Virus record (IMG/VR): IMGVR_UViG_3300006145_000006
Location: 2,480 to 66,479 of that record
Strand: one strand, 5' to 3'
Length of the DNA: 64,000 nucleotides
Origin: a virus
Taxonomy: Duplodnaviria; Heunggongvirae; Uroviricota; Caudoviricetes
The notes under the pieces are model-generated. The model was not told where the DNA came from and ran no database searches. It was given only the letters and a program-made list of their open reading frames with translations. Made by a program: the position numbers and the translations under genes. Below are positions 4,201-21,229 of the stretch, piece after piece; position 1 is the first letter of the stretch; every line of letters starts with the position of its first letter.

Positions 4201-6094
4201 GGCACTAGTCGAGCAAAACGCCATGCTGAAAGAGCAGAGGGAGCTGCAAGGGGGAGCAAGCGATGACCGCATCGAGCGGCACAGCAACGCCATCAGCCTG
4301 CTCAAAAACCAGCAGAGCGTTTATGAGGGCAACCTTGACTATCAGGCCGCCGTCCAGTCGCTCAAGGAGCAGAAATCTCACTGGGTAGAGATCCAGAATA
4401 TCGCACACCAGATGGCGGAGGATATCAGAGCCGCCCACCCCGGCATCACCAACGATGACCCCCTACTGAAGAAGTGGATCGATACTTGGTGGGAGGCCAA
4501 CGGTGAGATCAAGACCGCCAACGAGAGGTTTGTGGAGGACAGTCTTGCCCGGCTGGACAGCTTCATCCAGCAGGCGGACAACTTTAACTGGTGGGACCAC
4601 ATCGACACCACCAAGGTGGATATGCTGGAAAAGAAGCTGGCGACCATCCACCAGCTCTACGCAGACGGCATTATTCCAGACGCCGCCACCTACAAGAAGC
4701 TGGTTGACGAGACGGCCAAGGAGATCTATGACGAAAAGCTCAACGCCATTGAGAGGGTCATTGACTACACCAAGAAGCTGATCGAGGAGGAAGTTCGGCT
4801 TCGCAAGGAGGAGCTGGAGGAGCAGGTCGACGACTATAAGAAAATCGTTGACCTGAAGAAGGAGTCCCTCCGGGTAAGCAAGGACGAGGCGGACTACCAG
4901 AGGTCGGTTGCGGAGAAAACGAAGGCCATCGCCAAGCTCCAGCAACAGATCAACACTTTGTCTCTGTCCGACGACCGTCGAGATATCGCAGAGCGCAAAA
5001 AGCTGGAGGAGGAGCTGGCGGAGCTGCAAGGCGAGCTGGCGGATACTCAGGCTGACCACACTCTGGAGGCGCAGGAAAAGGCTCTGGACGACAGCTATAA
5101 TGCCTTTGAGCAGGAGAAGAACGACGAGATCAAGAAGCTGGAGGCCACCATCGACACCGAAGGCAAGCTCTATGCCCTGGCGATCAATCGCATTGACAGA
5201 GACTGGAACACCCTGTATGACGACCTGATGCAGATGAACTCCCTATATTGGGACGGAATCGCAGGCGAGGCCGGGATCAAGGGTGCATGGGATACAGCCA
5301 AGCAAGCTGCCGAGGGTTATAAGGGCACCTTGGAGACCATCCAGGGCATCGAGAAGGAACGGGCAGCCGTATCCGGCACGGGGACTTCGGTGGGAAGCTC
5401 TGTTGTTTCCGATAAGAGCGCCGCCTATCTCACCGGGGACATCGACAAACAGAAGAAACTCCAAGCTATCGGTGCGGAGATGCAGACCAATAGCCAGATG
5501 TGGCACACGGCTTACAACGCCAACAACAAGGGGCAGATGGAGGCTCTGCAAAAGGCTAACCAGAGGCTTGCCAAACAAGTCAAGGATTTGACGGGGCAGG
5601 AACCTGTGTTTGACTCCAGGGACGGGTATTGGAAGCTCGCCAACGGTGAACACTTCTATGAGGTGTATCATGGCGGCACAAAGGCCGTAGGCTCCAACGA
5701 GCCGTGGAATCTCAAGTCTGATGAGATCATGGCCAAGTTGCAACGAGAAGAGGCTGTCATCCCGAAAGATCAGGTACGGCCTACGCTCAAGTTCCTTGAA
5801 TGGGGTAACTCCATGGCAAGCAAAGCCCGAGGACTGTTCTCCGGGGGCGGGCTTATCGCCTCCGCTATGGGCAACGCCGTCAAGGGCGCTCCTCTCTCCC
5901 CCGCTGCCGGGGCTATTGTGAACAACAACGCCCCCAGTTTTGCTCCCAACATCAACGTTGAGGTCAAGTATGACGGCTCTGCCAGCCCTGCGGACGCCAA
6001 GCGCTTTGGGGAGAACATTACCGCCGGCATCAACGAGGCATTCCGCCGTAAGGGCTTTGGTACTGGGGCCAACCCGCTGGGGGTTACCATCTAA
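1262..6094 (+). CDS. phage tail tape measure protein (TMP); start codon uncertain (TTG, no clear SD)
   Basis: 1610 aa with long coiled-coil stretches. N-terminal Gly/Ala-rich TM segments (AAGGATVATGGLAAGLKGL...ITALATIITLSI). Lies immediately upstream of the tail tip protein. Sharp GC shift near 3.0 kb inside the gene. Confidence 0.8.
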   Translation: MQLPTKLSAIGTLTSIFANNTQNASAQVSQLAGAFSVLTPAQIANYASLQKLTEQQLLEILDLATLSKEQKDQIMNMYLAATATNTYTGAAGGATVATGGLAAGLKGLTAVIAANPWGFVITALATIITLSISWQKAQEKAFQEAIDNAKKLQNEYEATVDTLKDNMEAVQSLSTEFSKLSVGVDDKGNNISLTNEQYDRYLEIVNKLVGINPSLVKGWDDENQAIIDKNSAIASTIELLKQQRQLELQKVTTADNNWDILEGLSNQYSKEMDAVEDEVNKIRNAFVGNIEFNKGYKDNHVFGNKDSWAALFDQIAEAYGLDPAKVVGFDSKTMQSGWAALYKALFGVDMAKQANFTEQELRKLASFDYTKLFGILDNDIYSQFENATNRARLAVSQLDNAANAYQSQLQRIAQASTGWDKLSDGSQSFINTWITTMKIGEKETESSAQAMTDNLQTMITLLSSGTEDGNLLQSKIDSLFALDFSKMNANQVEQWYDVAENAIGDIQEILSHYGKSLSDDDIAAIRASIGLDLNFEINGQPATPATLVDAVKAKFKERGWNEDDVNGLNLGELKAFFTADLTVYSSAADAKEGLFPPQTVDNVNSLKTALAGLSDETTVLRDAMAKLDEGSAAFDKWIGSDDNLKSLLDKFPDLRDELEAYNNALAAGEDPQKAFITLQRAMNAALQDFNTDAIYDGINDVVSACDTYGASSNQVLQAVQNLDRFIPGLVDKLYTEENGLLTVASGANFSAAAIYNAAKETIELEKVVGKAKFDVFVAEVDNVSDALMRMGGTAAIAVGGLNPYKSLQEAKDQYIKDLDSLLASLNGAYRRINSNNKKSKSEKEVYVPDVDPLYQYLQAVEDINDELDGLDIDEKLLDEDDFEGKNRLIGDRIEKLEELKTALHELNNARDVEIHTAVGKLNGYGDFQATYDAESGQALINNMDALKHLTGDTAKAAEELISTIENGSKAAISTSKEYMEALVEQNAMLKEQRELQGGASDDRIERHSNAISLLKNQQSVYEGNLDYQAAVQSLKEQKSHWVEIQNIAHQMAEDIRAAHPGITNDDPLLKKWIDTWWEANGEIKTANERFVEDSLARLDSFIQQADNFNWWDHIDTTKVDMLEKKLATIHQLYADGIIPDAATYKKLVDETAKEIYDEKLNAIERVIDYTKKLIEEEVRLRKEELEEQVDDYKKIVDLKKESLRVSKDEADYQRSVAEKTKAIAKLQQQINTLSLSDDRRDIAERKKLEEELAELQGELADTQADHTLEAQEKALDDSYNAFEQEKNDEIKKLEATIDTEGKLYALAINRIDRDWNTLYDDLMQMNSLYWDGIAGEAGIKGAWDTAKQAAEGYKGTLETIQGIEKERAAVSGTGTSVGSSVVSDKSAAYLTGDIDKQKKLQAIGAEMQTNSQMWHTAYNANNKGQMEALQKANQRLAKQVKDLTGQEPVFDSRDGYWKLANGEHFYEVYHGGTKAVGSNEPWNLKSDEIMAKLQREEAVIPKDQVRPTLKFLEWGNSMASKARGLFSGGGLIASAMGNAVKGAPLSPAAGAIVNNNAPSFAPNINVEVKYDGSASPADAKRFGENITAGINEAFRRKGFGTGANPLGVTI

Positions 6095-6494: not shown

Positions 6495-9400
6495 ATGCCC
6501 ATGAACAATAACGATCTGGAGGTGAACGGTTTGGTCATTGACCTTTCTCAGTTTGATTTTAAGAAGAAGCCCACGCTGATCCTGCGCAACCCGGATGGGA
6601 CTGCCGTTGGCGTGTTGGGTACGGCCTACAACGTTAAGCTCGACCCGCACTACAACGAGGTGTCCGCGCTGGAATTTGACCTGTCGGCCTACGACGCGGT
6701 CATGCGGACGCCGCACTATGACCAGGTCATCGGGCTACGGATCGTTGACCTCAAGGGAATCGGGCAGTTTGTACTGAACAACCCGAAAACCATCAACGCC
6801 GGGGCGTGGGAAAGCAAGCACTGCACGGCGTATTCTCTGGAGCGGGAGTTTGTCCGCAAGGACGTTTATCTGGAGAAGAATGTCTACAACTTCTGGAACC
6901 CGGTATCCCCGGAGGGGACCGTGCTGGGAATCATCATGGAGAAGTTTCCCAACTGGTCTGTGGGCAAGGTAGACAGCGACCTCATTGGGAAATACCGTTC
7001 TCTGGACGACACGGACGGCAACGCTTACAACGTGATGAAGTCCACCCTTCAGGAGGCCTACGGCTGTATCTTCGACTTTGACACCTACAAGCGCAAGGTA
7101 AACGTGGTATCCGCCGCCAGCGATCCCGCTTCCCTACCCATGTTATTCTCCCTGGACAACCTCATTAAGCAGCTTGAAATCGAGGAGGATGACGAGAACA
7201 TCGCTACCTGTCTAGGAGTTTACGGAGCTGACGGGCTGAGCATCGTAGACGTGAATCCTATGGGCGGCGCAAAGCTTTACAACTTTGACTACTTCATGAA
7301 CGAGACCAACTTCGCCACAGAGGCCATTGAGAAGTACCAAGCATGGAAAGCTCACTTCAGGGCGATGCAGGAGCCGTTCTATCACCTCACGGTGGAGCAG
7401 GCGCTCAAGGAGTCTCAGGTGGCGGCGGAGGGCGCGCGGCTCACAGACCTGCAAGGGGAGCTGAAGGCGCTGGAGGGCGTTCAGGCCACTTGGGTGGAGC
7501 TGCTGGCCAGCCATGACTACTCCGGCAAGACACTGGAGGACGGTACGCCTGCCGACGAAAAGGGCGTTCAGAAGGAACTGGACAGGGTCAACGGACTGAT
7601 CCGAGATAAGAAACAGGAGATCGACACCCGGCAGGCCGTGGTGGACAGTGCGAAGGCCAAGGCCGACCAGCTCCAATCGGAACGGCAGCACATAGTGGAT
7701 AGCTGCCAATTTGATATGTTTTTCTCCGAGGAGGAAATCCTCCAGCTTGACCACTATATCATGGAAAACCGCATTGATGAGAGTTCCTTTGTTGCATCCG
7801 ATGTCAAGAACTACAATACTAAGGACACCAGCCTAATCATTAGCAACGCCACCGCCGCCCTGTATGGAAGCTATAGCGACAAGGGCACGATTTCCTTTGC
7901 TGAGTTGCCCGCTATTTCCCAAGCTGATGTGAACGCCGTCTATTATATTGCCTCCGGGGAGAAGCACCACTGGGATTCTGTGCTGACCCGTGCTATCACG
8001 CCGTCTCTCAAGAAAGAGGCGACCGCCATTGTCAACAAGACGGCAGATACTCAAGGCCATGAGTTGAGCGCGGAGTTTACTTCCTTTGTGAAGACGGCGC
8101 GGGACATCTATGTGGAGAACGCCGACGGCGAGGTGGTGGATGACTCCCCTGCCTCGATCCGCTATCTGGCGAAGGGTATTCTCACCGTGGGGCAACGCAC
8201 AGAGAGCCTGACTACGGAGACCTACTTTCTGACCACGGCGGACTTTGTGGACGGCGCGTGGGTTGTGTATCCCGCCGGGGTGAGCGTGGCCGTGCAGGGC
8301 ACAGGCCGGAGCAAGAAATACAAGGTGTTGCCTGCTGATTTCGTCCTGGCAGAGGAATCGGCCATCACAACCATTCAGCGGGACAACAGCACCATCTATT
8401 CTCTGTCCGGCGGGCGGTTCAGTCTTTCCGCCGGGGACACAGAGCTGGATGCCGATGTGGTACGGGCATCCGTGGAGATCATGAAGGATAAGACTTTTAC
8501 CCTGAGCGCATACCTGAACGGCGGTACGCTGGGCGAAACCGCCTTCCCAAGCGGGACGGTAGTCCTGACAGGCGACAGCAGCTCCGCTACCGCAGAGAGT
8601 GCTAAGCTAACCATGAATATCAAAGAGGCGCGCTTCTACTTCACCCAGAACCTGACCGAGTGGGAGCGGCGGAGCGTAGCCTGGGACTTGTTCCAGTATG
8701 GGCAGGAGGTTTTGGAGAAGGTTTCTCAGCCCAGCTACAGCTTCACGGTGGACTCCGCCGACTTCCTGGTGATGGACGAATTTGAGGCGTTCAAGAACGC
8801 CCTGTCCCTGGGCAAGCGGGTCTATCTCAAGCTGGACGACGGGCGTGTACTCACTCCCCTGCTCCTTGGCTTCTCCCACACCTTCGACGAGGAAAGCGGC
8901 CTGACGCTGGAGTTCTCCAACAAGTTCACCAGCAATGATGAGAACGACCGCCTGGTTGGCCTCCTGGAGCAAAGCGTGAGCATGGGCAAGAAGCTGGAAC
9001 TGAACCGGGAAATCAACTCCTTTACCCAGAGCCACGCCAACACGGCCATCCACGACTTTATGAATGGCGCGCTAGACGTTGCCAAAAACTCCATCCTGTC
9101 CACCACTGGGCAGGCCATTTCCTGGGACGAGAACGGCCTGCGGCTGCGGAAGTGGAACAGCGGCCGCACAGGGTATGAGGACGAGCAGATCTGGATGAAG
9201 GACAACCTGATCGTCTTTACCGAGGACGCATGGCAGCACGCCAAGATGGCCATCGGGCATATCCATGACGAGGAGCTTGGCGACCTGTGGGGCGTGATCG
9301 CGGACAGCATTGTGGGCAAGCTGCTGGCAGGTGAAAACCTCATTATCATGGGGACAGACGCCACGGGCAAGAAAACCCTGTTCCGGGTGGACGGCAGCGG

Positions 9401-10211
9401 GATGTACGCCTACAACAGCCGCTTCTGGATGGAGAGCCCCAACGGCGGGGCGTTTGCTATCGACCCGTCCTTTGGGTTGGGTCTTGGGCAGGGCAACCCG
9501 TTCACGGTTGGCTCTGACGGCACCATCGTGCCCAAGTGCATTGACGCGGCGACCGGGGAGCTGAAGTTGGACAAGGAAGGTTTCCCTGTGGGGATGAACT
9601 TCTGGGCTGGGATGGATGGGCAGGTTTATGTGCGAGGCAATATCTACGCCACCGACGGTGTGTTTAACGGCATAGTGAAAGCGAAGGACTTCCAGCTCCC
9701 CAGCGGAGACAGCATGGTGTCCATCCTGAACAACGACAAGAAGATCAAGTCTGATTGGCTTGACCTGATGGGGATCAACGTAAAAGACGAGAATGGCAAT
9801 ACCGTTATGACCATAGACGGCACAAACGGTATCACCATTCAAAAGGGTTCTATTAAGTGGAGTGATGTTTCAGGGCGGCCGAGTATCCCTAGACTGCCAG
9901 GGTACATTCAAAGCACCTACATTGATGCGACCAAGGTGGAGAGCTTTCACATTAAAGGTAACAAAGTCGAGGCAGTAATTCCAAAAGCAAGCAACGGGGA
10001 TGATGATACCGGGTTTATACTTACCGGTACATACGGGCAGAACGATTATCGCTATCTCCGTATTTATTCTTTTGCGGGAGACGAGGCTCTCACTGTGTTC
10101 ACATCTCCGGCGAGGACAACTGCAAGTTGGAGTTTTCCTATCACCAGATTTCATGGGCTTCTTGATTTCAGCAATGCTACGACGTACGGACTGCACTTAA
10201 CTTTGGCATAA
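6495..10211 (+). CDS. tail tip / tail-associated (Tal-like, phage minor structural protein N-terminal family) protein
   Basis: 1238 aa directly after the TMP. N-terminus (ILRNPDGTAVGVLG...RIVDLKGIGQFVLNNP) resembles the Tal/prophage-tail N-domain. The last ~110 codons have distinctly lower GC. Confidence 0.7.
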   Translation: MPMNNNDLEVNGLVIDLSQFDFKKKPTLILRNPDGTAVGVLGTAYNVKLDPHYNEVSALEFDLSAYDAVMRTPHYDQVIGLRIVDLKGIGQFVLNNPKTINAGAWESKHCTAYSLEREFVRKDVYLEKNVYNFWNPVSPEGTVLGIIMEKFPNWSVGKVDSDLIGKYRSLDDTDGNAYNVMKSTLQEAYGCIFDFDTYKRKVNVVSAASDPASLPMLFSLDNLIKQLEIEEDDENIATCLGVYGADGLSIVDVNPMGGAKLYNFDYFMNETNFATEAIEKYQAWKAHFRAMQEPFYHLTVEQALKESQVAAEGARLTDLQGELKALEGVQATWVELLASHDYSGKTLEDGTPADEKGVQKELDRVNGLIRDKKQEIDTRQAVVDSAKAKADQLQSERQHIVDSCQFDMFFSEEEILQLDHYIMENRIDESSFVASDVKNYNTKDTSLIISNATAALYGSYSDKGTISFAELPAISQADVNAVYYIASGEKHHWDSVLTRAITPSLKKEATAIVNKTADTQGHELSAEFTSFVKTARDIYVENADGEVVDDSPASIRYLAKGILTVGQRTESLTTETYFLTTADFVDGAWVVYPAGVSVAVQGTGRSKKYKVLPADFVLAEESAITTIQRDNSTIYSLSGGRFSLSAGDTELDADVVRASVEIMKDKTFTLSAYLNGGTLGETAFPSGTVVLTGDSSSATAESAKLTMNIKEARFYFTQNLTEWERRSVAWDLFQYGQEVLEKVSQPSYSFTVDSADFLVMDEFEAFKNALSLGKRVYLKLDDGRVLTPLLLGFSHTFDEESGLTLEFSNKFTSNDENDRLVGLLEQSVSMGKKLELNREINSFTQSHANTAIHDFMNGALDVAKNSILSTTGQAISWDENGLRLRKWNSGRTGYEDEQIWMKDNLIVFTEDAWQHAKMAIGHIHDEELGDLWGVIADSIVGKLLAGENLIIMGTDATGKKTLFRVDGSGMYAYNSRFWMESPNGGAFAIDPSFGLGLGQGNPFTVGSDGTIVPKCIDAATGELKLDKEGFPVGMNFWAGMDGQVYVRGNIYATDGVFNGIVKAKDFQLPSGDSMVSILNNDKKIKSDWLDLMGINVKDENGNTVMTIDGTNGITIQKGSIKWSDVSGRPSIPRLPGYIQSTYIDATKVESFHIKGNKVEAVIPKASNGDDDTGFILTGTYGQNDYRYLRIYSFAGDEALTVFTSPARTTASWSFPITRFHGLLDFSNATTYGLHLTLA

Positions 10212-10214
10212 ATG

Positions 10215-10883
10215 TTAGTAGCGGCAGTCAAACCATCCTAAATAGCAACCAGGTGTCATCCCCCATTCTGTCAATTCTTTAGCTGTATCATTGTAAAACC
10301 ACAAAGTCGTATAACCATATTCGTCTTTTAATTCTGCCCCAAGGCGGTATAGAAAGCCAGCTTCCTTTGCTTGGTCTATTTCATTTTTGAGGCCTTCATC
10401 GCTGATATTCTCTTTACTAATGCAGGCAAATGAAACACCACTTATTCCATTGGATTCGCCGGTCCATCTCACCTTGTATTCCCACATGGACTTGAACTCC
10501 TGATAGGCGGCTTGCTTTTCATCGCTCCAGGTGGAGGTATCATGTGCTGAGTCCCGCTTTTCCTGTTCCACAAACTCCTCCGTCTCCACAACCACAGCCC
10601 CATCCCAATCGATGGTCACCCCGGCCAGCTCACCAATCCGGCGGACGGGAAGGTAGGTCGTGCCGCCGCCCTTCTCGTCGGTGTAGGTGATGCTGGCAGG
10701 AGCCACGCAACCGTTGGGGAGGGTGTAGTCCTCGCCCGCTTCGGAGATGACCTGGCCGTTGAACTTAATGGCGGAGAGGTTGAATGAGACGTTGCCGGAG
10801 GCGGCGAGGGCGGCAACGGATGCCGAGAAAACCAGAGCAGAGGCCAGCACGCCGGTAATGAGACCGGAGAGATACTTTTTCAT
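10215..10883 (-). CDS. secreted protein with copper-amine-oxidase N-terminal-like (stalk) domain; signal peptide MKKYLSGLITGVLASALVFSASVAALAA
   Basis: Internal ATG at 10883 preceded by a GGAGTG SD. Signal peptide present. Motif YLPVRRIGELAGVTIDWDG is typical of the Cu_amine_oxidN1 domains of Clostridial surface proteins. Antisense to the tail genes. Confidence 0.6.
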   Translation of the reverse strand: MKKYLSGLITGVLASALVFSASVAALAASGNVSFNLSAIKFNGQVISEAGEDYTLPNGCVAPASITYTDEKGGGTTYLPVRRIGELAGVTIDWDGAVVVETEEFVEQEKRDSAHDTSTWSDEKQAAYQEFKSMWEYKVRWTGESNGISGVSFACISKENISDEGLKNEIDQAKEAGFLYRLGAELKDEYGYTTLWFYNDTAKELTEWGMTPGCYLGWFDCRY

Positions 10884-10968
10884 AGAAATGCACTCCTTTG
10901 GAAGATTAAATGTAGATAAAGACCTTTTGAGGCTATTCACGCAATAACATTTTAGAAGGAGAATAGTA

Positions 10969-11199
10969 ATGGTATTCAAACGCAACGAACAGCTCGTATA
11001 TAAGCAAAGGATTCCGCCCCTTGGCGGAGATTACTACCATCCATATACTCTTTCAGAGGACAAGATGATGGATGCAGCGGATAAAATCGTTAAATTTCTG
11101 TTGAAGGAAGGTGTTTCAATCAGGGACGCTCTATGGATCCTCGATGTGGCCAAGGAACGTGTCTTAGATTTTCCCTTCGATGAAGTCAATGCCATCTGA
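10969..11199 (+). CDS. hypothetical small protein
   Basis: 76 aa; AAGGAGA SD 6 nt upstream of the ATG. Confidence 0.45.
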   Translation: MVFKRNEQLVYKQRIPPLGGDYYHPYTLSEDKMMDAADKIVKFLLKEGVSIRDALWILDVAKERVLDFPFDEVNAI

Positions 11200-11439
11200 A
11201 CTAAACGTAAAGGTGCGTTTAACATGTTCGTGGCTTTCCACGACGATTGGCATATTGTCGGTTAAATAGCCTTTGCCGTTGATGTAACACAGCGCTCGGT
11301 TGTAGTCTGATATCTTAAGTCCAGTGCTACCCATCATCGTGGAATCGTCCGTTTCCACTGAGAGTGTTCCATCGTTCTCTTCTAACAGCGAATGGAGACA
11401 CGTAAGAATTTTGCGAGCATCTTTTGCAATTGTAAGCAT
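11164..11439 (-). CDS. hypothetical small protein (start at MLTIAKD, SD AAAGGAGA)
   Basis: Converges on and overlaps the preceding + ORF by 36 nt. Start chosen from the SD; no domain recognised. Confidence 0.4.
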   Translation of the reverse strand: MLTIAKDARKILTCLHSLLEENDGTLSVETDDSTMMGSTGLKISDYNRALCYINGKGYLTDNMPIVVESHEHVKRTFTFSSDGIDFIEGKI

Positions 11440-11484
11440 TTGAAGTTCTCCTTTACTTTTCATTTGTATGAATCGAGGTATCGC

Positions 11485-11760
11485 ATGAAAGTTATCAACA
11501 TCCCCCGCAACTGGGGAAAGACAACTGAGTTGATCCGTCAGTCAGCCCAAACGGGCTATCCCATTGTCACGCCGACAGGGCAGGCGTTGATTTATCGCAG
11601 GAAGGCCGAGGAGATGGGGTTGCCTGTCCCGGTTATTCTGACGGCAGAGGAGCTGAAAAAGAGCGATTACAAGAGGGTCTATGTTGACGAGGCAGGGTAT
11701 TTGCTGGAGCAGCTCCTTGGGGTCGAGGTCGAGGCGTTTACCATCAGCGGGGATGGTTAA
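11485..11760 (+). CDS. hypothetical protein, first gene of the rSAM cassette (starts MKVINIPRNWGKTTE)
   Basis: Internal ATG with a GAGGT SD. Contains a P-loop-like GKTTE element. Co-oriented immediately upstream of the radical SAM gene. Confidence 0.45.
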   Translation: MKVINIPRNWGKTTELIRQSAQTGYPIVTPTGQALIYRRKAEEMGLPVPVILTAEELKKSDYKRVYVDEAGYLLEQLLGVEVEAFTISGDG

Positions 11761-11980
11761 GGTGGTGAAAGAATTTGTTCAATCATTATTCTGAGTGGCC
11801 TTCGGAGCCCAAGTTGGAGATGGTGGAGGAGAGTTTTGCGTGCCCGCAGGAACGCCCTCTTTGGATTGCCCTAGGTATTGTATCTGTACTTTTAATTCTG
11901 ACTGCTGTTGTGTTTGGGTAATATTTGGGACGGTTGTATTATACCACACTTTCCCGAAAATGGCAAGGAGGTGACGCGCG

Positions 11981-13132
11981 GTGGCTCTGCCAAAAATCAC
12001 CTCGGCGTTCTTAAATTTGACCAACGCCTGCTGTCTGGCCTGCAAGTATTGCTTTGTGCATCAAAGTCCAGAGCATATGACATTGCAGGTCGCCAAGGAC
12101 GCGGCGGATTTTTTAGCCGCAAACGCAAAAGCACAGGGAGAAATTCCATCGATTAATTTCTTCGGCGGAGAGCCGATGCTTCGATATGAACAGGTGATCG
12201 TGCCGCTGACCCTTTACATCCGGGATACCTATGGGGATCATTTTAACCTTAGCATGACGAGCAACGGAATGTTATTTACGGAAGACCGTCTGTCCTTTAT
12301 GAGGAAGCATGGGGTCTCTCTTCTTTTCTCCATGGATGGCGGACGCGAGGTGCAAGACATGAACCGCCCAAGGGTTGATGGAGGTTCCAGTTTTGAGACG
12401 CTGGAGAAAACCATACCCTTGATTTTGCAATATTACCCGGAGGTCATGTTCCGCGCGACGGTGAACGAAGAAACGCAGGATAAGCTTTTTGACAGCATTC
12501 TGTTTGCAGAACGCCACGGGTTCAAAACCTTTTTTGTGATGCCGGACTGTTTTGCCGTTTGGAAAACCACACACGGACTTGACAGAGAAATGCGGAAGTA
12601 TTCCGATCACTACATCGACTGTTTGCGAGGTAGCGTTACACCCATTTACTTCTCGCAGTTGGAAAAATACTTCTCAAGAATCAGGCAATATAACCGTACC
12701 GTTATCAACAACTCCATGCGAGACTTCGATGGGTGCAAAGCCTGCGGAAAGTGCGGGCTCGGGTCAAACAAGTTTGCCGGCATCAACATCAACGGAGATG
12801 TTACCTCATGTCAAGAGTTCTTCTCTCGCACGGACGACAAGTTCTTGATCGGCAACATCTATACCGGGATCAACGACAATCTCCGGGCGCAGCTTATTGA
12901 GGAATTTGATTCCTCACCTGTCTATGGGAACAATTGCGAGGCTTGCCCGCTCAACAGGATTTGTGTTGGTGGTTGTGTTGCAAACAACTATATGATTACA
13001 GGAGACATACACCACGTTCCTGATATTTATTGCCATTGGGAGCGGCTTCTCTTCGGAGAGGCCGTTTATATTATGCAGGTTCTGGGTGAGGAGCGAAACG
13101 AGGCGTTTGCTCAAAGATGGTGCATGGCATGA
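11981..13132 (+). CDS. radical SAM / SPASM-domain peptide-modifying enzyme (ScfB/anSME-like maturase)
   Basis: GTG start with an AAGGAGGTG SD. Canonical CxxxCxxC (NACCLACKYCF). C-terminal SPASM cysteines (CKACGKCG...CEACPLNRICVGGCVANN). Confidence 0.85.
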   Translation: MALPKITSAFLNLTNACCLACKYCFVHQSPEHMTLQVAKDAADFLAANAKAQGEIPSINFFGGEPMLRYEQVIVPLTLYIRDTYGDHFNLSMTSNGMLFTEDRLSFMRKHGVSLLFSMDGGREVQDMNRPRVDGGSSFETLEKTIPLILQYYPEVMFRATVNEETQDKLFDSILFAERHGFKTFFVMPDCFAVWKTTHGLDREMRKYSDHYIDCLRGSVTPIYFSQLEKYFSRIRQYNRTVINNSMRDFDGCKACGKCGLGSNKFAGININGDVTSCQEFFSRTDDKFLIGNIYTGINDNLRAQLIEEFDSSPVYGNNCEACPLNRICVGGCVANNYMITGDIHHVPDIYCHWERLLFGEAVYIMQVLGEERNEAFAQRWCMA

Positions 13133-14004
13133 TGGATGAACTAATCAAAATCCCATCCTTCCTATCTGCCGACGATGATGCAGGAACACAAGCCACCGCA
13201 TGCTCTTTTTGTAGTGAGGTTGCCTGTGAAACAAGTGCAGAGCTTGGATGTAGCGGTTGCGAAGGAGACTGCGAGCACACGAGCCAAGGATGCACCTCAA
13301 CCTGCGAGAATGCATGCCAAACCAGTTGCCAAACCGGGTGTCAGTCCGCTTGCGAGACAAGCACGCAAGGCTCACCCCCTTCTTCTACGGTTTCTTTTTC
13401 GGTCAACGCGACGGGTGCGACCACGCTTCGTGTATCATGGAATAGTGTTGCTGGGGCGACGGACTATCAAATTGCATACAGGCCATCAGCATCAGGTTCA
13501 TCTTCCACGGTATACAAATCTGTTTCTGGAACTGCGTACACAATTTCTGGTCTCCAACCAGAAACGGAATATACGGTCAATGTTCGAGCTCACAATTCTT
13601 ATGGTTATGGGTCATTTAATTCCACAGGGAAAACGGCCACCACCTTGTCCGCAAGGCCGAAATACTGGTCATGGACAAATGGGCTGGTTGCATCCAAGCC
13701 GGCAATTGGTGCGTTATCCCCTGGGGACGATATCCCAGAGTACCTATCCGCCTCTGGGTGGACGTTGTTCGTGCAGAACATTAAGGACGTATATCAGTAT
13801 CGCATAGGTACGAGCTATTCTGGTAGTTTGAGCGATGGCGGCAACGGCACGACAAAGCTGTCTGCCGCTATGGTAAATCAGGCTATTACGGCCATTGGGA
13901 CAATGACCTCGACGTATCTGCCGGGGCAAACGGCATCCGGCACAACAAAACTCTCGGCCAGCCTGTTGAACGGACTGGCTGATTCTTTGAACGGCATTCC
14001 TTAA
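13117..14004 (+). CDS. SCIFF-like Cys-rich repeat (CxxxC x ~10) fused to a fibronectin type III domain protein; candidate rSAM substrate
   Basis: N-terminal ~25-aa leader-like segment. Core is CSFCSEVACETSAELGCSGCEGDCEHTSQGCTSTCENACQTSCQTGCQSACETS (compare SCIFF CQTSCQSACKTSC). An Fn3-like domain follows (VSWNSVAGATDYQIAYRP...EYTVNVRAHN) plus a C-terminal domain. Overlaps the rSAM stop. Confidence 0.7.
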   Translation: MVHGMMDELIKIPSFLSADDDAGTQATACSFCSEVACETSAELGCSGCEGDCEHTSQGCTSTCENACQTSCQTGCQSACETSTQGSPPSSTVSFSVNATGATTLRVSWNSVAGATDYQIAYRPSASGSSSTVYKSVSGTAYTISGLQPETEYTVNVRAHNSYGYGSFNSTGKTATTLSARPKYWSWTNGLVASKPAIGALSPGDDIPEYLSASGWTLFVQNIKDVYQYRIGTSYSGSLSDGGNGTTKLSAAMVNQAITAIGTMTSTYLPGQTASGTTKLSASLLNGLADSLNGIP

Positions 14005-14053: not shown

Positions 14054-14082
14054 TTGCCACATTCTCCCCTTTATTGTATAAT
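14054..14082 (+). promoter_or_regulatory. sigma70-like promoter TTGCCA-17nt-TATAAT
   Basis: Near-consensus -35/-10 hexamers with a 17-nt spacer, ~10 nt upstream of the SD/start of the following gene. Confidence 0.55.
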
Positions 14083-14093
14083 AATCGGGAAAG

Positions 14094-15035
14094 GTGGCGA
14101 TAACTGTGAGGTTATCTGAAGTGTACTTTATATGTAAAAACGCGTTAAACAATTGGGTTAGACCAGAATTCAAGGAGCACGTGCGCAACGGGACTTCTAC
14201 TGATTATTCCATTCAAAACATTGAAGCATTGAGGGGGATGATTGATCCCTTACGGGAAGTAGACTGTCTTCAGGAAACGATTGCCGCCATTGGGGAAGAT
14301 TTCCACGATTTAGATAAGCCACCATATCATGAATATTTCAACAGCGCCACAAAAATACACGGAGACGGTCTAATCCGTCACTTGATGTCCCAAATAGCCA
14401 CTATTTGTGATTTATACGAAAGCATGGGGTTGTCTATTGAAGATAATCGAACGGGGTTTGATGTAAAGTTGCCTGCCAGCATTTCGCTGGAGGAAATCAG
14501 CCGGTGTACGCACGACCTCGACCTTCTACTTAACAAGTGCCCAATTTTCTCTGGTATTGACAGCACCGTCTCATTTGAGCGCACCGATGTTGGATCTGTC
14601 TGGCTTACCTTTGTTGTTGTTGGAACGGCGGCTGTTGGTTTCTTGGGGGCTCTCGCCCATTTGATTGACAAAGCTATTATTGTCCGTTCCCATCATCTCA
14701 CCGTAAAAGAGCATGAGATTCGTGTTCGGGAGTTGGAGCTTAGTGCGGAGGCAGCAGAATCTCTCACAAAAGCATATACAGAGATGAATGAAAAGCTGCT
14801 TGAGAAAACTGTACAGGAGTTAGCACAAGAACATGATGTTACAAGCCCTGAAGATCAAGAACGAGTCCGTGCGGCTATTAAGACGTTGAGCGATTGGATG
14901 GATAAGGGGCTTCAAATCTATCCGTCCTTAAGCGCTCCGCAAGAGGTAAAGGCTGTGTTTCCTCCGTTGGAACGTCAGTCGCTCAAGGAGTCTGAAATCA
15001 AAATGCTGACATCTTCCGCCCAGGAAGAGTCTTAA
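14094..15035 (+). CDS. moron-encoded membrane protein with central TM helix and C-terminal coiled coil (probable start GTG 14106 with AAGGTGG SD)
   Basis: 313 aa. TM segment VWLTFVVVGTAAVGFLGALAHLI. Has its own promoter and terminator. No known domain. Confidence 0.6.
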   Translation: MAITVRLSEVYFICKNALNNWVRPEFKEHVRNGTSTDYSIQNIEALRGMIDPLREVDCLQETIAAIGEDFHDLDKPPYHEYFNSATKIHGDGLIRHLMSQIATICDLYESMGLSIEDNRTGFDVKLPASISLEEISRCTHDLDLLLNKCPIFSGIDSTVSFERTDVGSVWLTFVVVGTAAVGFLGALAHLIDKAIIVRSHHLTVKEHEIRVRELELSAEAAESLTKAYTEMNEKLLEKTVQELAQEHDVTSPEDQERVRAAIKTLSDWMDKGLQIYPSLSAPQEVKAVFPPLERQSLKESEIKMLTSSAQEES

Positions 15036-15064: not shown

Positions 15065-15107
15065 AATCCCTGCTTGATCCGAATGGATCAAGCAGGGATT
15101 GTTTTAT
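15065..15107 (+). terminator. rho-independent terminator (16-bp perfect stem AATCCCTGCTTGATCC + GTTTTAT)
   Basis: Perfect inverted repeat with a 4-nt loop followed by a T-run. Confidence 0.7.
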
Positions 15108-15343: not shown

Positions 15344-16180
15344 ATGGCATTCACAGCATACGAGTTCACCTTTAATGGGCGCTCCTGCCGGGAGTTTGGT
15401 CTCATCCTGTGCGACTTCAACGGATCTGACCGTGAGGGCGGAACACACACAGCGGGCGGAAAGCCACAGGTGGAGACGGTGTTCCGGCAATACCGTTCTT
15501 TGCTGAGAGGGATGGAGGACGAAGAAAAGCTCTCGTTCCCGCTATCCTTTTGGCTTTGTCCGGATAGGATGGAGCGGCGGCAATTTCTGGACCGCTTTGA
15601 GATCGAAGCAATCTCCTCCTGGCTCACCGGGCATCGCGACTGGGGGTGGCTGACTATTGTGCAGGACGACCTGTCACATGTGCGGTATCGCTGTATGATC
15701 ACCGAGCTAAAGGAGGTCTCCAGCGGATGGGACACCTACGGCTTTACATGCACGGTGCAGTGCGACTCCCATTATGCCTATATGCTCCCGCAGGAATACA
15801 AGTATCACTGTGTTGACACGCTGAATCTCGACTTCTTCAATCGGAGTTCTATGAACGACCCCTACTTCCCTGCTTTGGCCATTGAGCCGCTGGGAAGCGG
15901 GGGCGTTTCCATTGTGAATCAGTCCCTTGACGGGACCGGTCCGGCCTGGGGTGATCTGGCCTATGTGAGCGGGGCAAAACTTGATCCCCTTCCCTCTTTG
16001 GCTCAGCTCAGGATCGAGCTTGATGAGAATGGAGTGCTAGCAAACTCCGAGGGGTTGAACCTGTACCCATACTATAACTTCGAGAGATTGGGGCTTGCTC
16101 GGGGCAAAAACAGGCTGGTCGTAACGGGAAAATGTAATTTGACGATCCGGTGCGAATTTCCGGTGGATGTGGGGGTGTAA
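15344..16180 (+). CDS. siphovirus tail component, Dit-like (distal tail protein family N-terminus)
   Basis: N-terminus FTFNGRSCREFGLILCDFNG matches the Sipho_tail family hallmark (FNGxxSxxFGLxv). 278 aa. Confidence 0.55.
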   Translation: MAFTAYEFTFNGRSCREFGLILCDFNGSDREGGTHTAGGKPQVETVFRQYRSLLRGMEDEEKLSFPLSFWLCPDRMERRQFLDRFEIEAISSWLTGHRDWGWLTIVQDDLSHVRYRCMITELKEVSSGWDTYGFTCTVQCDSHYAYMLPQEYKYHCVDTLNLDFFNRSSMNDPYFPALAIEPLGSGGVSIVNQSLDGTGPAWGDLAYVSGAKLDPLPSLAQLRIELDENGVLANSEGLNLYPYYNFERLGLARGKNRLVVTGKCNLTIRCEFPVDVGV

Positions 16181-16185: not shown

Positions 16186-16560
16186 ATGGCACGTTGTTAT
16201 TGTTTGGAAAATAACGGGAGCTTTAGTATGGTTGCCGGAGAGGGTGGAGCAATCACCTTCCACATGGTAGATGGACAAAGCAAGATCCCGCTTGATATCA
16301 CTGGATATAACGCTGAGTTCACGGCGGTGGATTGTACCAATCAAGATACGGTACAAATCTCCAAAAAGCCCAGTGAGATCAAGGTGATAGATGACCTCGT
16401 CATTGTCCGATTAGAACCAAACGACACAAGCAAGCTCCTGCCGGGCAAATATCTATACCAGCTTGAAATTTGGAGTAATGACGCGGGCCCGGAGGTCGTT
16501 TCAGAAGGATCTATCTTCATCAGAAGAAATTATAAGGGGGTGAGTCCTGTTGAGTATTAA
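16186..16560 (+). CDS. hypothetical tail-associated small protein
   Basis: ATG 6 nt after the Dit stop; 124 aa, beta-rich. Confidence 0.45.
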   Translation: MARCYCLENNGSFSMVAGEGGAITFHMVDGQSKIPLDITGYNAEFTAVDCTNQDTVQISKKPSEIKVIDDLVIVRLEPNDTSKLLPGKYLYQLEIWSNDAGPEVVSEGSIFIRRNYKGVSPVEY

Positions 16561-17701
16561 CTTTACTGGGCGTGAGGGTTGCCCACATGTAGGCGCCAGC
16601 GCATCCGGTCTGGTGCTTGAAAAAGTTCTGGGCGCCCTTGATGAATCAAGAGAGAACCTACAAAATGCGCAAGAGATCAAGGATGAGACTCTGAAAATCA
16701 AAGAGGATGCCGAAGCCGCCGAAACTGGCGCATTGGCGGCTAAAAATACCGCAGAACGTGCGGTTCAAGATGCGCAGGCCGCCAAATCCGACGCTCAAGA
16801 CGCAAAGGGCGGTGCAGAGGACGCACTTGAGAAAGCCTTGGAAGCGCAAGGAAATGCAGAAGCCGCAAGAGATGGTGCGCTGGCGGCGAAAGGCGATGCC
16901 ATTGAAGCCAGAGATGAAGCCCGTAACGCCAGAGATACTGCAAAGCAGTACAGCGGAAAGCCCGCCAAAGCCATTGATGGCACGTGGTGGATCTGGAACG
17001 CCGAGACGGGAGAATATGAGGACAGCGGAGCATCCTCCGTATTGTCTATTCAGCACAGCTACCCCAGTATTGTTGCAATGGATGCTGATTTTGACAACAC
17101 CAATAGGAATGACATGGCTATCATCTCTTCCTCCGTTGAGAAAGAGGACACCGCGAAGCTATACATCAACAACGGCACGGAATGGGTTTACCTATGTGAT
17201 CTGTCCGGCGTGCAGGGCGCGAAGGGTGACGCGGCCACGGTAACGGTAGGGACGGTGACCGCCGGAGATGCTGGGTCTGATCCATTGGTCACAAATGCAG
17301 GAACCCCCGCCGCCGCGGTACTTAACTTCGTGATTCCCAAGGGAGATAAGGGTGACAAAGGGGATCCCGGCGTCGGAATCAGCAGTATTACTCTTACATC
17401 TGGAAACCACACTCCAGGAACGGAAGACACCTACACGGTGCGGCTTACTGATGGAAAGGAATTTAGTTTCCAGGTCTATAACGGCACAAACGGAAGTGGC
17501 GCGGGCGATTTGATGGCAGACGGTTCTGTGTCCATGACAGGTGACTTAAACGCCGGCGGGCACAAGGTGACAAATTTAGCGGCCCCAGAGGCCGATGTCG
17601 ACGCTGTGCGAAAGGCTGATTTGGACAGTCTGATCATCACCAGCGCAACCCAGCCGTCCAGTCAGTCCACAAACGGGATTTGGTACAAGGTTCTATCGTA
17701 A
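16550..17701 (+). CDS. tail fiber protein with collagen-like GDKGDKGDPG repeat and Ala/Glu-rich coiled-coil N-region
   Basis: TTG start with an AAGGGGG SD. Collagen triplet repeat; typical phage fiber composition. Confidence 0.7.
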   Translation: MSINFTGREGCPHVGASASGLVLEKVLGALDESRENLQNAQEIKDETLKIKEDAEAAETGALAAKNTAERAVQDAQAAKSDAQDAKGGAEDALEKALEAQGNAEAARDGALAAKGDAIEARDEARNARDTAKQYSGKPAKAIDGTWWIWNAETGEYEDSGASSVLSIQHSYPSIVAMDADFDNTNRNDMAIISSSVEKEDTAKLYINNGTEWVYLCDLSGVQGAKGDAATVTVGTVTAGDAGSDPLVTNAGTPAAAVLNFVIPKGDKGDKGDPGVGISSITLTSGNHTPGTEDTYTVRLTDGKEFSFQVYNGTNGSGAGDLMADGSVSMTGDLNAGGHKVTNLAAPEADVDAVRKADLDSLIITSATQPSSQSTNGIWYKVLS

Positions 17702-20362: not shown

Positions 20363-21229
20363 ATGAATCATAAAGATCTTACAGTCAAGCGTTTGCTGGA
20401 CACCGCATCGGATGAGGTGGGCTATCTGGAAAAGAAGTCCGCCGCCAATCTGGACGATAAGACCGCCAACGCCGGGAACAAGAACTACACCAAGTATGCC
20501 AGCGACCTGGATGCCATCAAGGGGTTCTACAACGGGCGCAAGCAGGGGAGCTCTTGGTGCGACGTGTTTGTGGACTGGTGCTTTGTGCAAGCCTTTGGGG
20601 TGGAGGTGGCCCTGAAGCTCCTGTGTCAGGTCATGGGCGGCTGCGGGGCGGGGGTAAAGTACTCCGCCCAGTATTTCAAGGCGAAAGGACAGTTTATTTT
20701 CAAAGACCCAAGCCCCGGCGACCAGATTTTCTTTGTGCGGCGGGACAAGGCGGGCAACATCGCCGCATGGCTTCACACGGGCATTGTAGAGAAGGTAGCG
20801 GGCGGGTATGTCTACACCATTGAAGGCAACACCGGCGGCACGTCCGGGGTGGTGAGCAACGGCGGCGGGGTGTGTCGCAAGAGGTACACGCTGAACAGCT
20901 CCAGCATAGGGGGGTATGGCCGCCCGGACTGGAGCTTGGTGCCGCAGGAGATAACCGCGCCACCCAGACAAGACAAAATGGAGGATGATGACATGATGGA
21001 TGTGACCAAGTTCGAGGAGCTTTTTAACGAGATGCGTCACGAGCTTCAGGACAATGACAGCGGCAAGTGGAGCGAAGAAGCTCGGCGGTGGGCGATTTCC
21101 TCTGGTCTAGTGGCCGGGAACGGCACTCAAATCAGCGGGGAGCCCAACTACATGTGGGAAGATATTCTCACCAGAGAGCAGCTTGTGACAGTGCTCTACC
21201 GCTTTGCAAAGTTGATTGGACAAGCATAA
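20363..21229 (+). CDS. endolysin: N-terminal CHAP peptidase + C-terminal SLH-like wall-binding domain
   Basis: CHAP motifs (NYTKYA...GSSWCDVFVDWCF...HTGIV...YTIEGNT). SD GGAGGTG. Confidence 0.8.
   Translation: MNHKDLTVKRLLDTASDEVGYLEKKSAANLDDKTANAGNKNYTKYASDLDAIKGFYNGRKQGSSWCDVFVDWCFVQAFGVEVALKLLCQVMGGCGAGVKYSAQYFKAKGQFIFKDPSPGDQIFFVRRDKAGNIAAWLHTGIVEKVAGGYVYTIEGNTGGTSGVVSNGGGVCRKRYTLNSSSIGGYGRPDWSLVPQEITAPPRQDKMEDDDMMDVTKFEELFNEMRHELQDNDSGKWSEEARRWAISSGLVAGNGTQISGEPNYMWEDILTREQLVTVLYRFAKLIGQA

Follow-up and report, generated by a model that had tools for sequence, protein, structure and literature searches.

To our knowledge, thioether formation by radical SAM enzymes has been described almost exclusively for small secreted peptides (RiPPs) and a single enzyme subunit, QhpC. 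In the PapB/freyrasin system, the chemistry requires a carboxylate acceptor C-terminal to the cysteine (PMC12373016). CteB, an ScfB enzyme acting in the SCIFF system, holds the substrate cysteine on an open-site auxiliary cluster, and ScfB-type enzymes possess a leader-binding domain, the RRE (PMC8326336). QhpD links cysteines to Asp and Glu residues of a protein subunit through several thioethers (PMC8326336).

The locus considered here lies in a 64,000-nucleotide stretch (the window) of a Caudoviricetes virus, IMG/VR record IMGVR_UViG_3300006145_000006. An initial annotation had proposed that an ScfB-type maturase is encoded there next to a SCIFF-like cysteine-repeat protein within a tail module, and that such a pair had not been described. 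In agreement with the latter, the openly searchable full-text literature yielded no paper in which a radical SAM enzyme of a phage is paired with a structural protein bearing Cys repeats. The features of the locus are the following.

11981 to 13132, plus strand: radical SAM/SPASM maturase gene, 383 aa, without an RRE domain (ORF; Pfam, NCBIfam and PDB matches)
12029 to 12052, plus strand: CX3CX2C motif (C17, C21, C24) for the SAM-binding [4Fe-4S] cluster (motif search)
12734 to 13033, plus strand: SPASM region, eight conserved cysteines for two auxiliary clusters (motif search, TIGR04085)
13117 to 14004, plus strand: putative substrate gene, 295-aa ORF (ORF; homologue starts)
13135 to 13164, plus strand: N-terminal motif D-E-L-I-K-I-P-S-F-L, a candidate docking or recognition element (conserved as DxxIxIPxxL in substrate alignment A1)
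13201 to 13353, plus strand: Cys ladder C29-C79, 12 Cys, predicted modification site (sequence, spacing, family comparison)
13375 to 13647, plus strand: fibronectin type III (Fn3) domain, residues 87-167 (PF00041)
13648 to 14001, plus strand: C-terminal domain of about 118 aa, residues 178-295, phage-specific (conserved in substrate alignment A1)

The enzyme and its putative substrate

The enzyme gene opens with a GTG codon about 10 nt downstream of a ribosome-binding site, AAGGAGGTGA. The assignment of its 383-aa product to the radical SAM/SPASM enzymes is borne out: Pfam Radical_SAM (PF04055) scores 52.2 bits against a cut-off of 29.5, Fer4_12 also matches, and the NCBIfam SPASM domain (TIGR04085) reaches 48.8 against a cut-off of 27. 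The CX3CX2C motif is invariant among 22 homologues (enzyme alignment A2). The cysteines of the SPASM region (C252, C258, C277, C319, C322, C328, C332 and C351), invariant or nearly so in the same alignment, form the motifs CX13GX4C (C258-C277) and CX2CX5CX3C (C319-C332), with C252 and C351 besides, and align with the SPASM cysteines of CteB.

Among the NCBIfam families the best match is PapB (NF047865), with 179.5 bits over profile positions 2-328 of 330 and a trusted cut-off of 340. It is followed by the nif11 maturase model (137 bits, under cut-off), ScfB (TIGR03974; 134.3 bits, equivalog cut-off 425) and QhpD (TIGR03906; 126.1 bits, cut-off 453); the neighbours of the enzyme gene are phage tail genes, with no qhp operon. 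Three of these four families, PapB, ScfB and QhpD, are characterised as thioether-forming, and their scores of 126-180 bits compare with about 78-92 bits for the anSME, RumMC and YhhB models (anSME, TIGR03942, 79.4 bits against a cut-off of 349; sactisynthase RumMC, 78 bits). The CXXX-repeat maturase model (TIGR04115) yields 93.2 bits against a cut-off of 350, and the CefB Cys-every-fifth model (NF038107) 68 against 600. The closest PDB structure is the ranthipeptide synthase CteB (5WGG, 5e-29). An N-terminal RRE is absent from the enzyme: the alignment begins at CteB residue 99, likewise at position 99 of the TIGR03974 profile, and the cluster motif is reached already at residue 17. Judged by sequence, the nearest characterised relatives of the enzyme are thioether-forming maturases, namely PapB and then ScfB/CteB and QhpD. 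With a score far below the ScfB cut-off, a higher one for PapB and no RRE, the ScfB-type identity given in the initial annotation does not hold; the anSME that it had named as the competing assignment scores lower than both PapB and ScfB.

The start of the substrate gene is probably ATG 13129 or ATG 13132, because homologues open with MDELIK or MIDELIK; ATG 13129 gives an ATGA overlap with the enzyme stop codon (13130-13132). The overlapping downstream gene had been credited with about 12 cysteines, an Fn3 domain and a further C-terminal domain, and each of these was found. The protein has four parts, i.e., the DELIKIPSFL motif, 12 Cys in the 51 residues 29-79, the Fn3 domain and the 118-aa C-terminal domain. 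Full-length homologues are only 16 in a search of 5.8 billion proteins, and the Cys tract is kept in homologues of the protein. Neither a signal peptide nor a transmembrane segment was detected in the 295 aa. The Fn3 domain (PF00041; E=4.6e-12, 46.4 bits, cut-off 25) is modelled by AlphaFold as seven strands with a pLDDT of about 90, and PDB Fn3 structures match it. The C-terminal domain is modelled as three helices and a small beta hairpin (pLDDT 82); a PDB fold search with this model gave no match. An HMM built from the domain matches the C-terminus of gp52 of Bacillus phage Basilisk (1e-17), which is encoded by the last gene of the virion module, with no adjoining radical SAM enzyme in the annotated region, and which was proposed, speculatively, to be tail-associated (PMC6145125). 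The domain is carried by 1490 cluster representatives, always at the C-terminus, and Cys tracts occur in only 18 of the 143 top members of its family.

The ladder is made mostly of C-[E/Q]-x-x units and ends with CETSTQG; the AlphaFold pLDDT is below 50 across residues 1-83. Given a background Cys content of 1.45% (16 large ORFs of the window), the probability of at least 12 Cys in 51 aa is 8e-12, and that of at least six gaps of exactly four, with the ladder cysteines placed at random, is 4e-4. The strict four-residue spacing claimed for the ladder applies to the last six cysteines (C59-C79) and to C48-C52, the first cysteines being irregular. Across 21 substrates, the Cys-Cys spacing is 4 in 243 cases and 3 in 126 cases, the residue following Cys is Q in 43% and E in 40%, and the tracts end with C[EQ]xxxQ. 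About half of the +1 residues being Gln and not Glu is a counterpoint to PapB-like chemistry.

The resemblance of the tract to a SCIFF core was not recovered by profile searches. No NCBIfam peptide model matches the 295-aa protein at E<=0.01 or its first 86 residues at E<=1, and membership of SCIFF (TIGR03973) or CXXX-repeat families was rejected for the window tract and those of six relatives, with no NCBIfam match even at E<=1. The SCIFF partner is a peptide of about 45 aa encoded upstream, whereas here the partner has 295 aa and is encoded downstream. The anSME target C/S-x-P/A-x-R is also missing, there being no CxPxR or CxAxR in the tract sequence. Since the enzyme stays below every curated family cut-off and the tract matches neither SCIFF nor another peptide model, the pair represents a new family and not ScfB/SCIFF. 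The N-terminus described as leader-like carries a DxxIxIPxxL motif that many relatives also have, with 2-4 copies in some; such an N-terminus is not universal, as the tract begins at residue 3-4 in some relatives and sits after a 140-aa domain in others. This makes a classical leader-dependent RiPP logic doubtful. For the leaderless protein P0155, whose contigs are short, the upstream frame shows nothing but an out-of-frame Cys tract.

Recurrence and genomic setting of the pair

The comparative check suggested in the initial annotation was made on 47 distinct enzymes (at least 36% identity; viral and GTDB contigs). In 41 cases an ORF on the same strand, with a density of 12 or more Cys per 60 aa, starts between -133 and +76 nt from the enzyme stop. 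The addition of one locus with a 4-Cys tract (L098) and another with the tract just upstream (L044) brings the recurrence of the pair to about 43 of the 47. Two of the enzymes without an adjoining tract sit at contig ends, and an adjoining Cys protein is absent for L102 and for L108, which has two tandem enzymes. Tracts range from 4 to over 50 Cys. The enzyme family comprises at least 479 clusters (90% identity) at E<=1e-30 and occurs on over 100 viral contigs; the phages and prophages with the pair have hosts of the Oscillospiraceae, Peptoniphilaceae and Clostridiaceae. Prophages are present in the cultured strains Lawsonibacter faecis NSJ-52, Ezakiella peruensis M6.X2 and Peptoniphilus indolicus ATCC 29427, so the family is directly testable.

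In L001-L004, the enzyme-then-substrate order and the overlap are kept although the substrates are just 30-46% identical. The tract is joined to unrelated cargos of virion type, namely Fn3 with the C-terminal domain, this C-terminal domain by itself (194 aa), Hoc-like Ig repeats (matching phrog_10993 at 1e-84) and a 540-aa domain, and the enzymes cluster by cargo type in a neighbour-joining tree without support values. L006 keeps synteny with L168 on either side, yet it is devoid of the enzyme as well as of the leader and Cys tract, and its gene for the Fn3 and C-terminal domains has its own RBS. Similarly, no radical SAM gene lies in the 4 kb upstream of P0141, a homologue without the cysteines. 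Because the adjacency is conserved and often overlapping, the enzyme tree follows cargo type and the two elements are absent jointly, the downstream protein is very probably the substrate of the enzyme. No protease or exporter was seen beside the pair in any locus examined. A homology of the 295-aa protein to the Cys-rich ORF after the Phass-1 enzyme was discarded (BLASTP E=0.16, not significant).

The window carries a tape measure gene (1262-6094), a gene for a 1238-aa minor tail/Tal-like protein (6495-10211), and genes for a DUF6558 tail protein (15344-16180) and a fibre-like protein (16550-17701). A 20-kb megablast query found no counterpart among 50,697 phage records. A location between tail genes had been reported for the pair, and this is correct as regards its flanks, the Tal-like and the DUF6558 and fibre genes; the surroundings are nonetheless a mosaic stretch that includes opposite-strand and moron-like genes. 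In other phages, the pair directly follows Dit and Tal (L002), is preceded by baseplate and tail-fibre genes and followed by the endolysin (L043), or has the major head protein on one side and a tail protein on the other (L027). As a counterpoint to a virion role, the pair in such a mosaic stretch could be an accessory gene.

Two neighbours were considered as further components and rejected. The 122-aa ORF at 11392-11760, a candidate stand-alone recognition partner, has a phrog_1828 match only and is absent from every other pair locus examined; the cassette start of 11485 given earlier takes in this unrelated ORF and is not retained. The 313-aa gene downstream of the pair is present in L003, L168 and L169 but not in the pair-bearing L001 and L004, and it comes with a promoter-like site and a strong terminator of its own. 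The window phage also encodes NrdD, which, together with strictly anaerobic hosts, fits an oxygen-sensitive enzyme.

Proposed mechanism and alternatives

We lean towards the reading that a leader-independent maturase puts multiple thioether staples into virion-associated proteins. The domain anatomy, the conserved pairing, the enzyme tree tracking cargo type, the joint absence and the setting in structural modules are observed, and from there we infer a modification of the tract by the enzyme, the thioether nature of the links, the residues joined and a place of the protein in the virion. The pair would form a translationally coupled phage module in which the RRE-less enzyme acts on the N-terminal Cys ladder of the next protein. 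By analogy with PapB, CteB/ScfB and QhpD, SAM would be cleaved reductively and the radical would take a side-chain hydrogen from an acceptor, most likely the Glu/Gln after nearly every Cys or a neighbouring Ser/Thr; the carbon radical would be joined to the sulfur of a Cys held on an auxiliary SPASM cluster. Repetition along the tract would produce a series of non-alpha thioether staples. Since relatives can do without the leader motif and no RRE is present in the enzyme, it is probably the repeated C-[Q/E]-x-x unit that is recognised. The result would be an N-terminal stalk or anchor held by covalent staples, resistant to reduction and proteases, on an Fn3 and C-terminal-domain protein of the tail or virion-surface apparatus. 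The staples, formed in the cytoplasm before lysis, may be the anaerobe's stand-in for disulfides.

A broader reading, to which we give somewhat less than even weight, is that of a portable 'thioether ladder': a leader-independent enzyme with a variable-length C-[Q/E]-x-x tract grafted onto tail, fibre and capsid-decoration proteins of phages of strictly anaerobic Firmicutes. The tract would be a poly-thioether rod or anchor in the role of disulfides or of an isopeptide chainmail, with the ELIxIPxxL repeat as docking peptide, and a covalent attachment of the tract to adjacent subunits of the virion might even occur.

Other reactions of the same enzyme-substrate pair, such as alpha-thioether (sactionine) formation, conversion of Cys to formylglycine or dehydroalanine, C-C or C-O links or epimerisation, are the most serious alternative, albeit an unlikely one. 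SPASM enzymes carry out all of these (PMC8326336), the enzyme reaches the trusted cut-off of no characterised family, and the anSME, sactisynthase and cyclophane-forming models match significantly, though more weakly. However, it is the best-scoring characterised families (126-180 bits, the others about 78-92) that form non-alpha thioethers, CteB is the best structural relative, the conserved Cys with the following Gln/Glu corresponds to ranthipeptide donor-acceptor logic, and the tract has no anSME motif. Much less probable is a RiPP precursor with a large follower, whose leader and Cys core would be modified and cleaved off as a diffusible SCIFF-like ranthipeptide (signal or toxin), leaving the Fn3 and C-terminal domains as a carrier. 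Such a reading might draw on the likeness to SCIFF cores noted in the initial annotation, on the conserved motif ahead of the core in many members and on the frequency of SCIFF-type peptides in Clostridia (PMC8326336); it is opposed by the lack of a protease or exporter in the loci examined, by tracts that may exceed 50 Cys, start leaderless at residue 3-4 or follow a 140-aa domain, by cargos that are typical virion proteins in structural modules and by the enzyme having no RRE.

We also regard as improbable, though less so than a cleaved precursor, an accessory (moron) role outside the virion, for instance as a host-surface or adhesion factor freed at lysis or as an anti-defence or superinfection factor. 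The mosaic insert with its opposite-strand genes and a neighbour under its own promoter-like site and terminator would suit this role, and related phages do manage without enzyme and tract. Nevertheless, the protein lacks a signal peptide and a transmembrane segment, the position inside tail, fibre and head-tail modules is kept in three different phage architectures, and the cargos show homology to Hoc-like decoration proteins as well as to the Basilisk gp52 C-terminus. Hardly credible, finally, is a ladder that serves as a metal, Fe-S or disulfide domain beside an enzyme with an unrelated target. Metal binding is frequent for Cys-dense tracts, but the adjacency in about 43 of 47 relatives, the enzyme tree tracking cargo type and the joint loss of enzyme and tract all argue against it. 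Metallothionein motifs are CxC/CxxC, unlike the dominant CxxxC with Q/E at +1, which differs from ferredoxin motifs too, and disulfides are disfavoured in the cytoplasm of strict anaerobes.

If the stapling of virion-associated proteins is real, thioether chemistry would be extended to large folded virus proteins, and a maturase family working without a recognition domain on a simple repeat would be attractive for protein stapling and engineering. It would also show by what means gut phages keep their surface proteins stable or anchored in strict anaerobes, where disulfides are unavailable. Should the portable-module reading be true, it would provide the first example of a virus particle modified post-translationally by a radical SAM enzyme, and likewise the first protein-scale 'ranthi-protein' domain.

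Comparison with known systems

The pair resembles the PapB/freyrasin and CteB (ScfB)/SCIFF systems in having a radical SAM/SPASM enzyme with two auxiliary clusters and closely spaced substrate cysteines with polar or acidic neighbours, and non-alpha thioethers would be expected here as well. In contrast to PapB and CteB, which bind leaders by an N-terminal RRE, the phage enzyme has no such domain. The SCIFF peptide is about 45 aa long and encoded upstream of its enzyme, whereas the phage substrate is a folded protein of 190-1000 aa with 4 to over 50 Cys, encoded downstream. Unlike both systems, the present pair is phage-borne and located in structural modules.

QhpD/QhpC is similar in that radical SAM/SPASM thioethers are made in a protein kept in a larger assembly, with no released peptide. 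QhpC, however, is a small subunit of a periplasmic enzyme and bears three links and a quinone cofactor, while here a repetitive tract of variable length is carried by phage proteins with no dehydrogenase context. By their NCBIfam family names, the CXXX-repeat (TIGR04115) and CefB (NF038107) enzymes are likewise radical SAM/SPASM maturases for periodic Cys repeats, and CXXX repeats share the period-4 Cys pattern of the phage tract; their targets are annotated as peptides, with no phage or structural context in NCBIfam, and the scores of our enzyme against them are weak. Hoc-like decoration proteins and Basilisk gp52 belong to the same groups as the cargo parts of the substrates, but gp52 has no adjoining radical SAM enzyme and most members of the C-terminal-domain family are without a Cys ladder. 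The HK97 capsid 'chainmail' consists of autocatalytic Lys-Asn isopeptides between capsid subunits. It is comparable as a post-translational covalent stabilisation of phage particle proteins; in the present pair, by contrast, the links would be thioethers made by a dedicated radical enzyme and would probably stay within one chain.

The radical SAM/SPASM enzyme

The system under study consists of two overlapping ORFs of the window:
11981-13132 (+), radical SAM/SPASM enzyme, 383 aa, with Pfam and NCBIfam matches
13117-14004 (+), Cys-ladder/Fn3/CTD protein, 295 aa (CTD, C-terminal domain)

Both ORFs proposed by the initial annotation are present, although its left coordinate, 11485, also takes in an unrelated small ORF. 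The first product turned out to be a radical SAM/SPASM enzyme, as claimed, with 52.2 bits for Pfam Radical_SAM (cut-off 29.5), 48.8 bits for the SPASM domain TIGR04085 (cut-off 27) and the full set of Cys motifs. A motif search places the cluster motif CX3CX2C at C17/C21/C24, and the SPASM region carries CX13GX4C (C258-C277) and CX2CX5CX3C (C319-C332), together with C252 and C351. These cysteines are invariant or nearly so in an alignment of 22 homologues, and the cluster ligands of CteB (ScfB) align with them. The gene begins with GTG, preceded by a strong RBS.

NCBIfam family-specific models matching the enzyme (score in bits; cut-off)
PapB ranthipeptide maturase (top-ranked): 179.5; 340
nif11-type maturase: 137; 518.7
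ScfB: 134; 425
QhpD: 126; 453
CcpM: 108; 500
CXXX-repeat maturase: 93; 350
anSME: 79; 349
RumMC sactisynthase: 78; 720

None of these models reaches its trusted cut-off. The proposed assignment to ScfB-type maturases (TIGR03974) did not hold, given 134 bits against 425 and the absence of an RRE, the N-terminal peptide-recognition domain. A better score as an anSME, which the initial annotation had regarded as evidence against its own reading, is not seen (79 bits vs. 179.5 for PapB). The closest solved structure is CteB (5WGG, 5e-29), and the alignment begins at CteB residue 99, i.e., past the RRE, which in CteB and PapB performs the docking of the leader peptide (PMC8326336, PMC12373016). Since the family scores are below the cut-offs and the alignment starts after the CteB RRE, the enzyme is, judged by its sequence, a separate RRE-less family nearest to the non-alpha-thioether synthases. 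The family comprises 479 clusters at E<=1e-30. One 531-aa homologue (P0080, 49% identity) has Hint/intein Pfam domains and is therefore a putative intein-interrupted version of the enzyme.

The cysteine-ladder protein and its pairing with the enzyme

The second ORF had been described as overlapping the enzyme stop and as carrying a Cys ladder, an Fn3 domain and a further C-terminal domain, all of which was recovered. The N-terminal motif DELIKIPSFL is followed by a tract with 12 Cys in residues 29 to 79, Fn3 (PF00041, E=4.6e-12) and a conserved CTD (residues 178-295). Both the Cys density of the tract (P=8e-12) and its period-4 spacing (P=4e-4) are far above chance. The strict four-residue spacing that had been reported applies to the last six Cys and one earlier pair only, but not to the remaining Cys. 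The real start is likely ATG 13129, where homologues also begin; it gives an ATGA overlap with the enzyme stop, which implies translational coupling. AlphaFold predicts Fn3 and CTD confidently and residues 1-83 with no confident structure, as one would expect of a segment that has yet to be modified. The tract has no match among the NCBIfam precursor models, SCIFF included, and the suggested SCIFF-like core is thus not sustained. A BFVD entry for a 200-aa gut-phage protein bears the label 'Six-cysteine peptide SCIFF', which shows only that automatic annotation brushes against such proteins.

Full-length homologues number only 16 among 5.8 billion proteins; their layout is identical, with Cys tracts that differ in length and sequence. 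The CTD is C-terminal in 1490 cluster representatives and has no match among solved structures. Its HMM matches gp52 of Bacillus phage Basilisk (E=1e-17), the product of the final gene of the virion module, which the authors describing that phage thought to be tail-associated (PMC6145125). Only 18 of the 143 best-matching CTD proteins have a Cys tract, and the ladder is therefore an optional addition to CTD proteins.

In 21 substrates, successive Cys are most often spaced by 4 (243 cases) and next most often by 3 (126); in CxxxC units, Cys is followed by Q in 43% and by E in 40%. The tracts close with C[EQ]xxxQ and range among relatives from 4 to >50 Cys. The cargo fused to them may be Fn3 plus CTD, a CTD by itself (194 aa), Ig repeats of the Hoc-like kind (phrog_10993, 1e-84) or a 540-aa domain without assigned function, among others. 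Two very long substrates were observed: a 929-aa protein with 113 Cys and SleB-like peptidoglycan-binding repeats in Clostridium tepidiprofundi DSM 19306 (L104, 5196-7985), and a 1018-aa protein with a tract of 69 Cys from residue 4 in a Vallitalea MAG (L107, 5240-8296).

The motif [DE]-x-L-I-x-[IV]-P-x-x-L is present in many substrates. In P0175, P0199, P0218 and P0253, two to four tandem copies of ELIxIPxxL precede the tract, which suggests a short linear docking motif working through avidity. Certain members have a different N-terminus (MALKEDDIKDLGLEIGEE), in others a 140-aa domain precedes the tract, and some have no leader, the tract beginning at residue 3-4. The missing RRE and the variable or absent leader argue that the enzyme recognises the Cys repeat itself. 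Alternatively, the N-terminal motif may dock the protein onto the particle.

The same two-gene pair, for which the initial annotation had proposed looking in related phages, recurs widely. In four relatives (L001-L004) the order is again enzyme then Cys protein, mostly with overlapping stop and start, and the substrates are only 30-46% identical to the 295-aa protein. Among 47 distinct enzymes of >=36% identity from IMG/VR and GTDB contigs, 41 are followed by a same-strand ORF that begins between -133 and +76 nt of the enzyme stop and holds >=12 Cys in 60 aa. Elsewhere in this sample, L098 has a 4-Cys tract, L044 has the tract directly upstream, two enzymes lie at contig ends and L102 has no Cys ORF. 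The remaining member of the sample, from Clostridiaceae bacterium M8S5 (L108 2611-5170, CP118523.1), also departs from the pairing, with two tandem enzyme paralogues and no same-strand adjoining Cys-dense ORF of >=80 aa. In a neighbour-joining tree without support values, the enzymes cluster by cargo type. L006 matches L168, a contig with the pair, in synteny on both flanks, yet enzyme, leader and Cys tract are all missing from it, and a separate RBS precedes its Fn3-CTD gene. Likewise, no radical SAM gene is found in the 4 kb upstream of the Cys-less homologue P0141.

Some more distant enzymes (22-31% identity; L053, L055, L060, L075, L087) have a same-strand Cys-dense ORF upstream, which in L075 and L087 ends immediately before the enzyme. 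The theme may therefore extend past the studied clade, in reversed gene order. Phage Phass-1 (L007, OQ749652.1, 5944-7662), a TAG-recoded (code 15) gut phage, has a 28% identical radical SAM/SPASM gene that an in-frame TAG cuts into two annotated CDS. It is followed by an unannotated 174-aa ORF (7138-7662) with Cys clusters at either end (C-terminal CNTCNVGCDIQCRTCITCNSC), whose similarity to the window's Cys protein is not significant (E=0.16), and then by topoisomerase-like rather than tail genes.

Genomic setting and hosts

The window is a temperate phage or prophage, with no DNA-level similarity to any isolated phage in INPHARED. The pair has these neighbours:
1262-6094, tape measure, upstream
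6495-10211, Tal-like minor tail protein, 1238 aa, upstream
14094-15035 (+), 313-aa protein with a predicted membrane helix, next gene downstream
15344-16180, DUF6558 tail protein, downstream
16550-17701, collagen-like fibre protein, downstream
20363-21229, CHAP lysin, downstream
23422-24588, integrase, after the lysin

The location among phage tail genes is thus as originally stated, within a mosaic stretch that includes opposite-strand genes. One of these, between the Tal-like gene and the pair, encodes a 256-aa protein (10215-10985, -) with a hydrophobic N-terminal segment and a weak Cu_amine_oxidN1 match; L168 and L006 have an equally weakly matching counterpart in the equivalent position. 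The 313-aa protein has no Pfam, PHROG or NCBIfam match. Because its gene has its own near-consensus promoter-like site (14054-14082, 11/12 matches) and a strong terminator (15065-15100, 16-bp stem), it looks like a moron within the tail module; it occurs in L003, L168 and L169, and not in L004 or L006. A C5 methylase is encoded 3' of the lysin region. NrdD (anaerobic ribonucleotide reductase) and a DNA polymerase III alpha subunit are encoded at 25122-27299 (-) and 44468-47836 (-), and the former fits a strictly anaerobic host.

In L004, L168 and L169 the pair likewise precedes the DUF6558 tail protein. It lies immediately 3' of Dit and Tal in L002, between baseplate and tail-fibre genes upstream and an endolysin downstream in the myovirus-like L043, and flanked by the genes of the major head protein and of a tail protein in L027. 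In L002, a diversity-generating retroelement (reverse transcriptase and bAvd accessory protein; 3475-5227) precedes Dit, Tal and the pair at a distance of a few genes. The hosts of relatives are strict anaerobes and include Lawsonibacter faecis (60% identity) and other Oscillospiraceae, as well as Ezakiella, Peptoniphilus, Fenollaria, Clostridium tepidiprofundi, Fervidicella and Vallitalea. Cultured lysogens among them are L. faecis NSJ-52 (pair at about 278.6-280.5 kb of NZ_JACOPQ010000005.1), Ezakiella peruensis M6.X2 and Peptoniphilus indolicus ATCC 29427.

Proposed mechanism and relation to known systems

The initial observation is confirmed, and its interpretation is right in substance and wrong in family assignment. 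By analogy with PapB, CteB and QhpD (PMC8326336, PMC12373016), a SAM-derived radical would take a side-chain hydrogen from an acceptor residue, the foremost candidate being the conserved Glu or Gln following each Cys, with Ser or Thr at +2 and +3 as alternatives. The carbon radical would then join the Cys sulfur held on an open-site auxiliary cluster, and cycles repeated along the tract would yield a segment with multiple putative staples. We favour a role as a covalently stiffened stalk or anchor on a putative virion-surface protein, resistant to reduction and proteases. The stapling would take place in an anaerobe's cytoplasm, which does not allow disulfides.

Other readings have to be weighed against this one. 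The same enzyme may act on the same substrate by another chemistry, a minor but real possibility; the sub-cut-off scores speak for it and the resemblance to CteB speaks against it. An accessory role outside the virion seems unlikely; the moron-like neighbour would favour it, and the recurrent structural-gene setting speaks against it. It is improbable that a SCIFF-like peptide is released out of a large precursor: the ladder is reminiscent of one, and the leaderless or internal tracts, the virion-type cargos and the missing RRE speak otherwise. Least probable is a metal-binding or disulfide domain beside an unrelated enzyme, a view that the Cys-rich composition would permit and the repeated pairing would leave unexplained.

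The stapled-stalk reading implies a system that would operate in the manner of ranthipeptide or QhpD-type thioether formation. No description of such a phage enzyme/Cys-protein system was found in the full-text literature outside subscription journals, and enzyme and tract fall outside the ScfB/SCIFF, PapB, QhpD, anSME and CXXX-repeat families. In contrast to ranthipeptide and QhpD-type systems, the enzyme here has no RRE, the substrate is of protein scale and modular architecture with a tract of variable length, its gene lies downstream of the enzyme, and the whole appears to be leader-independent and resides in phage structural modules.
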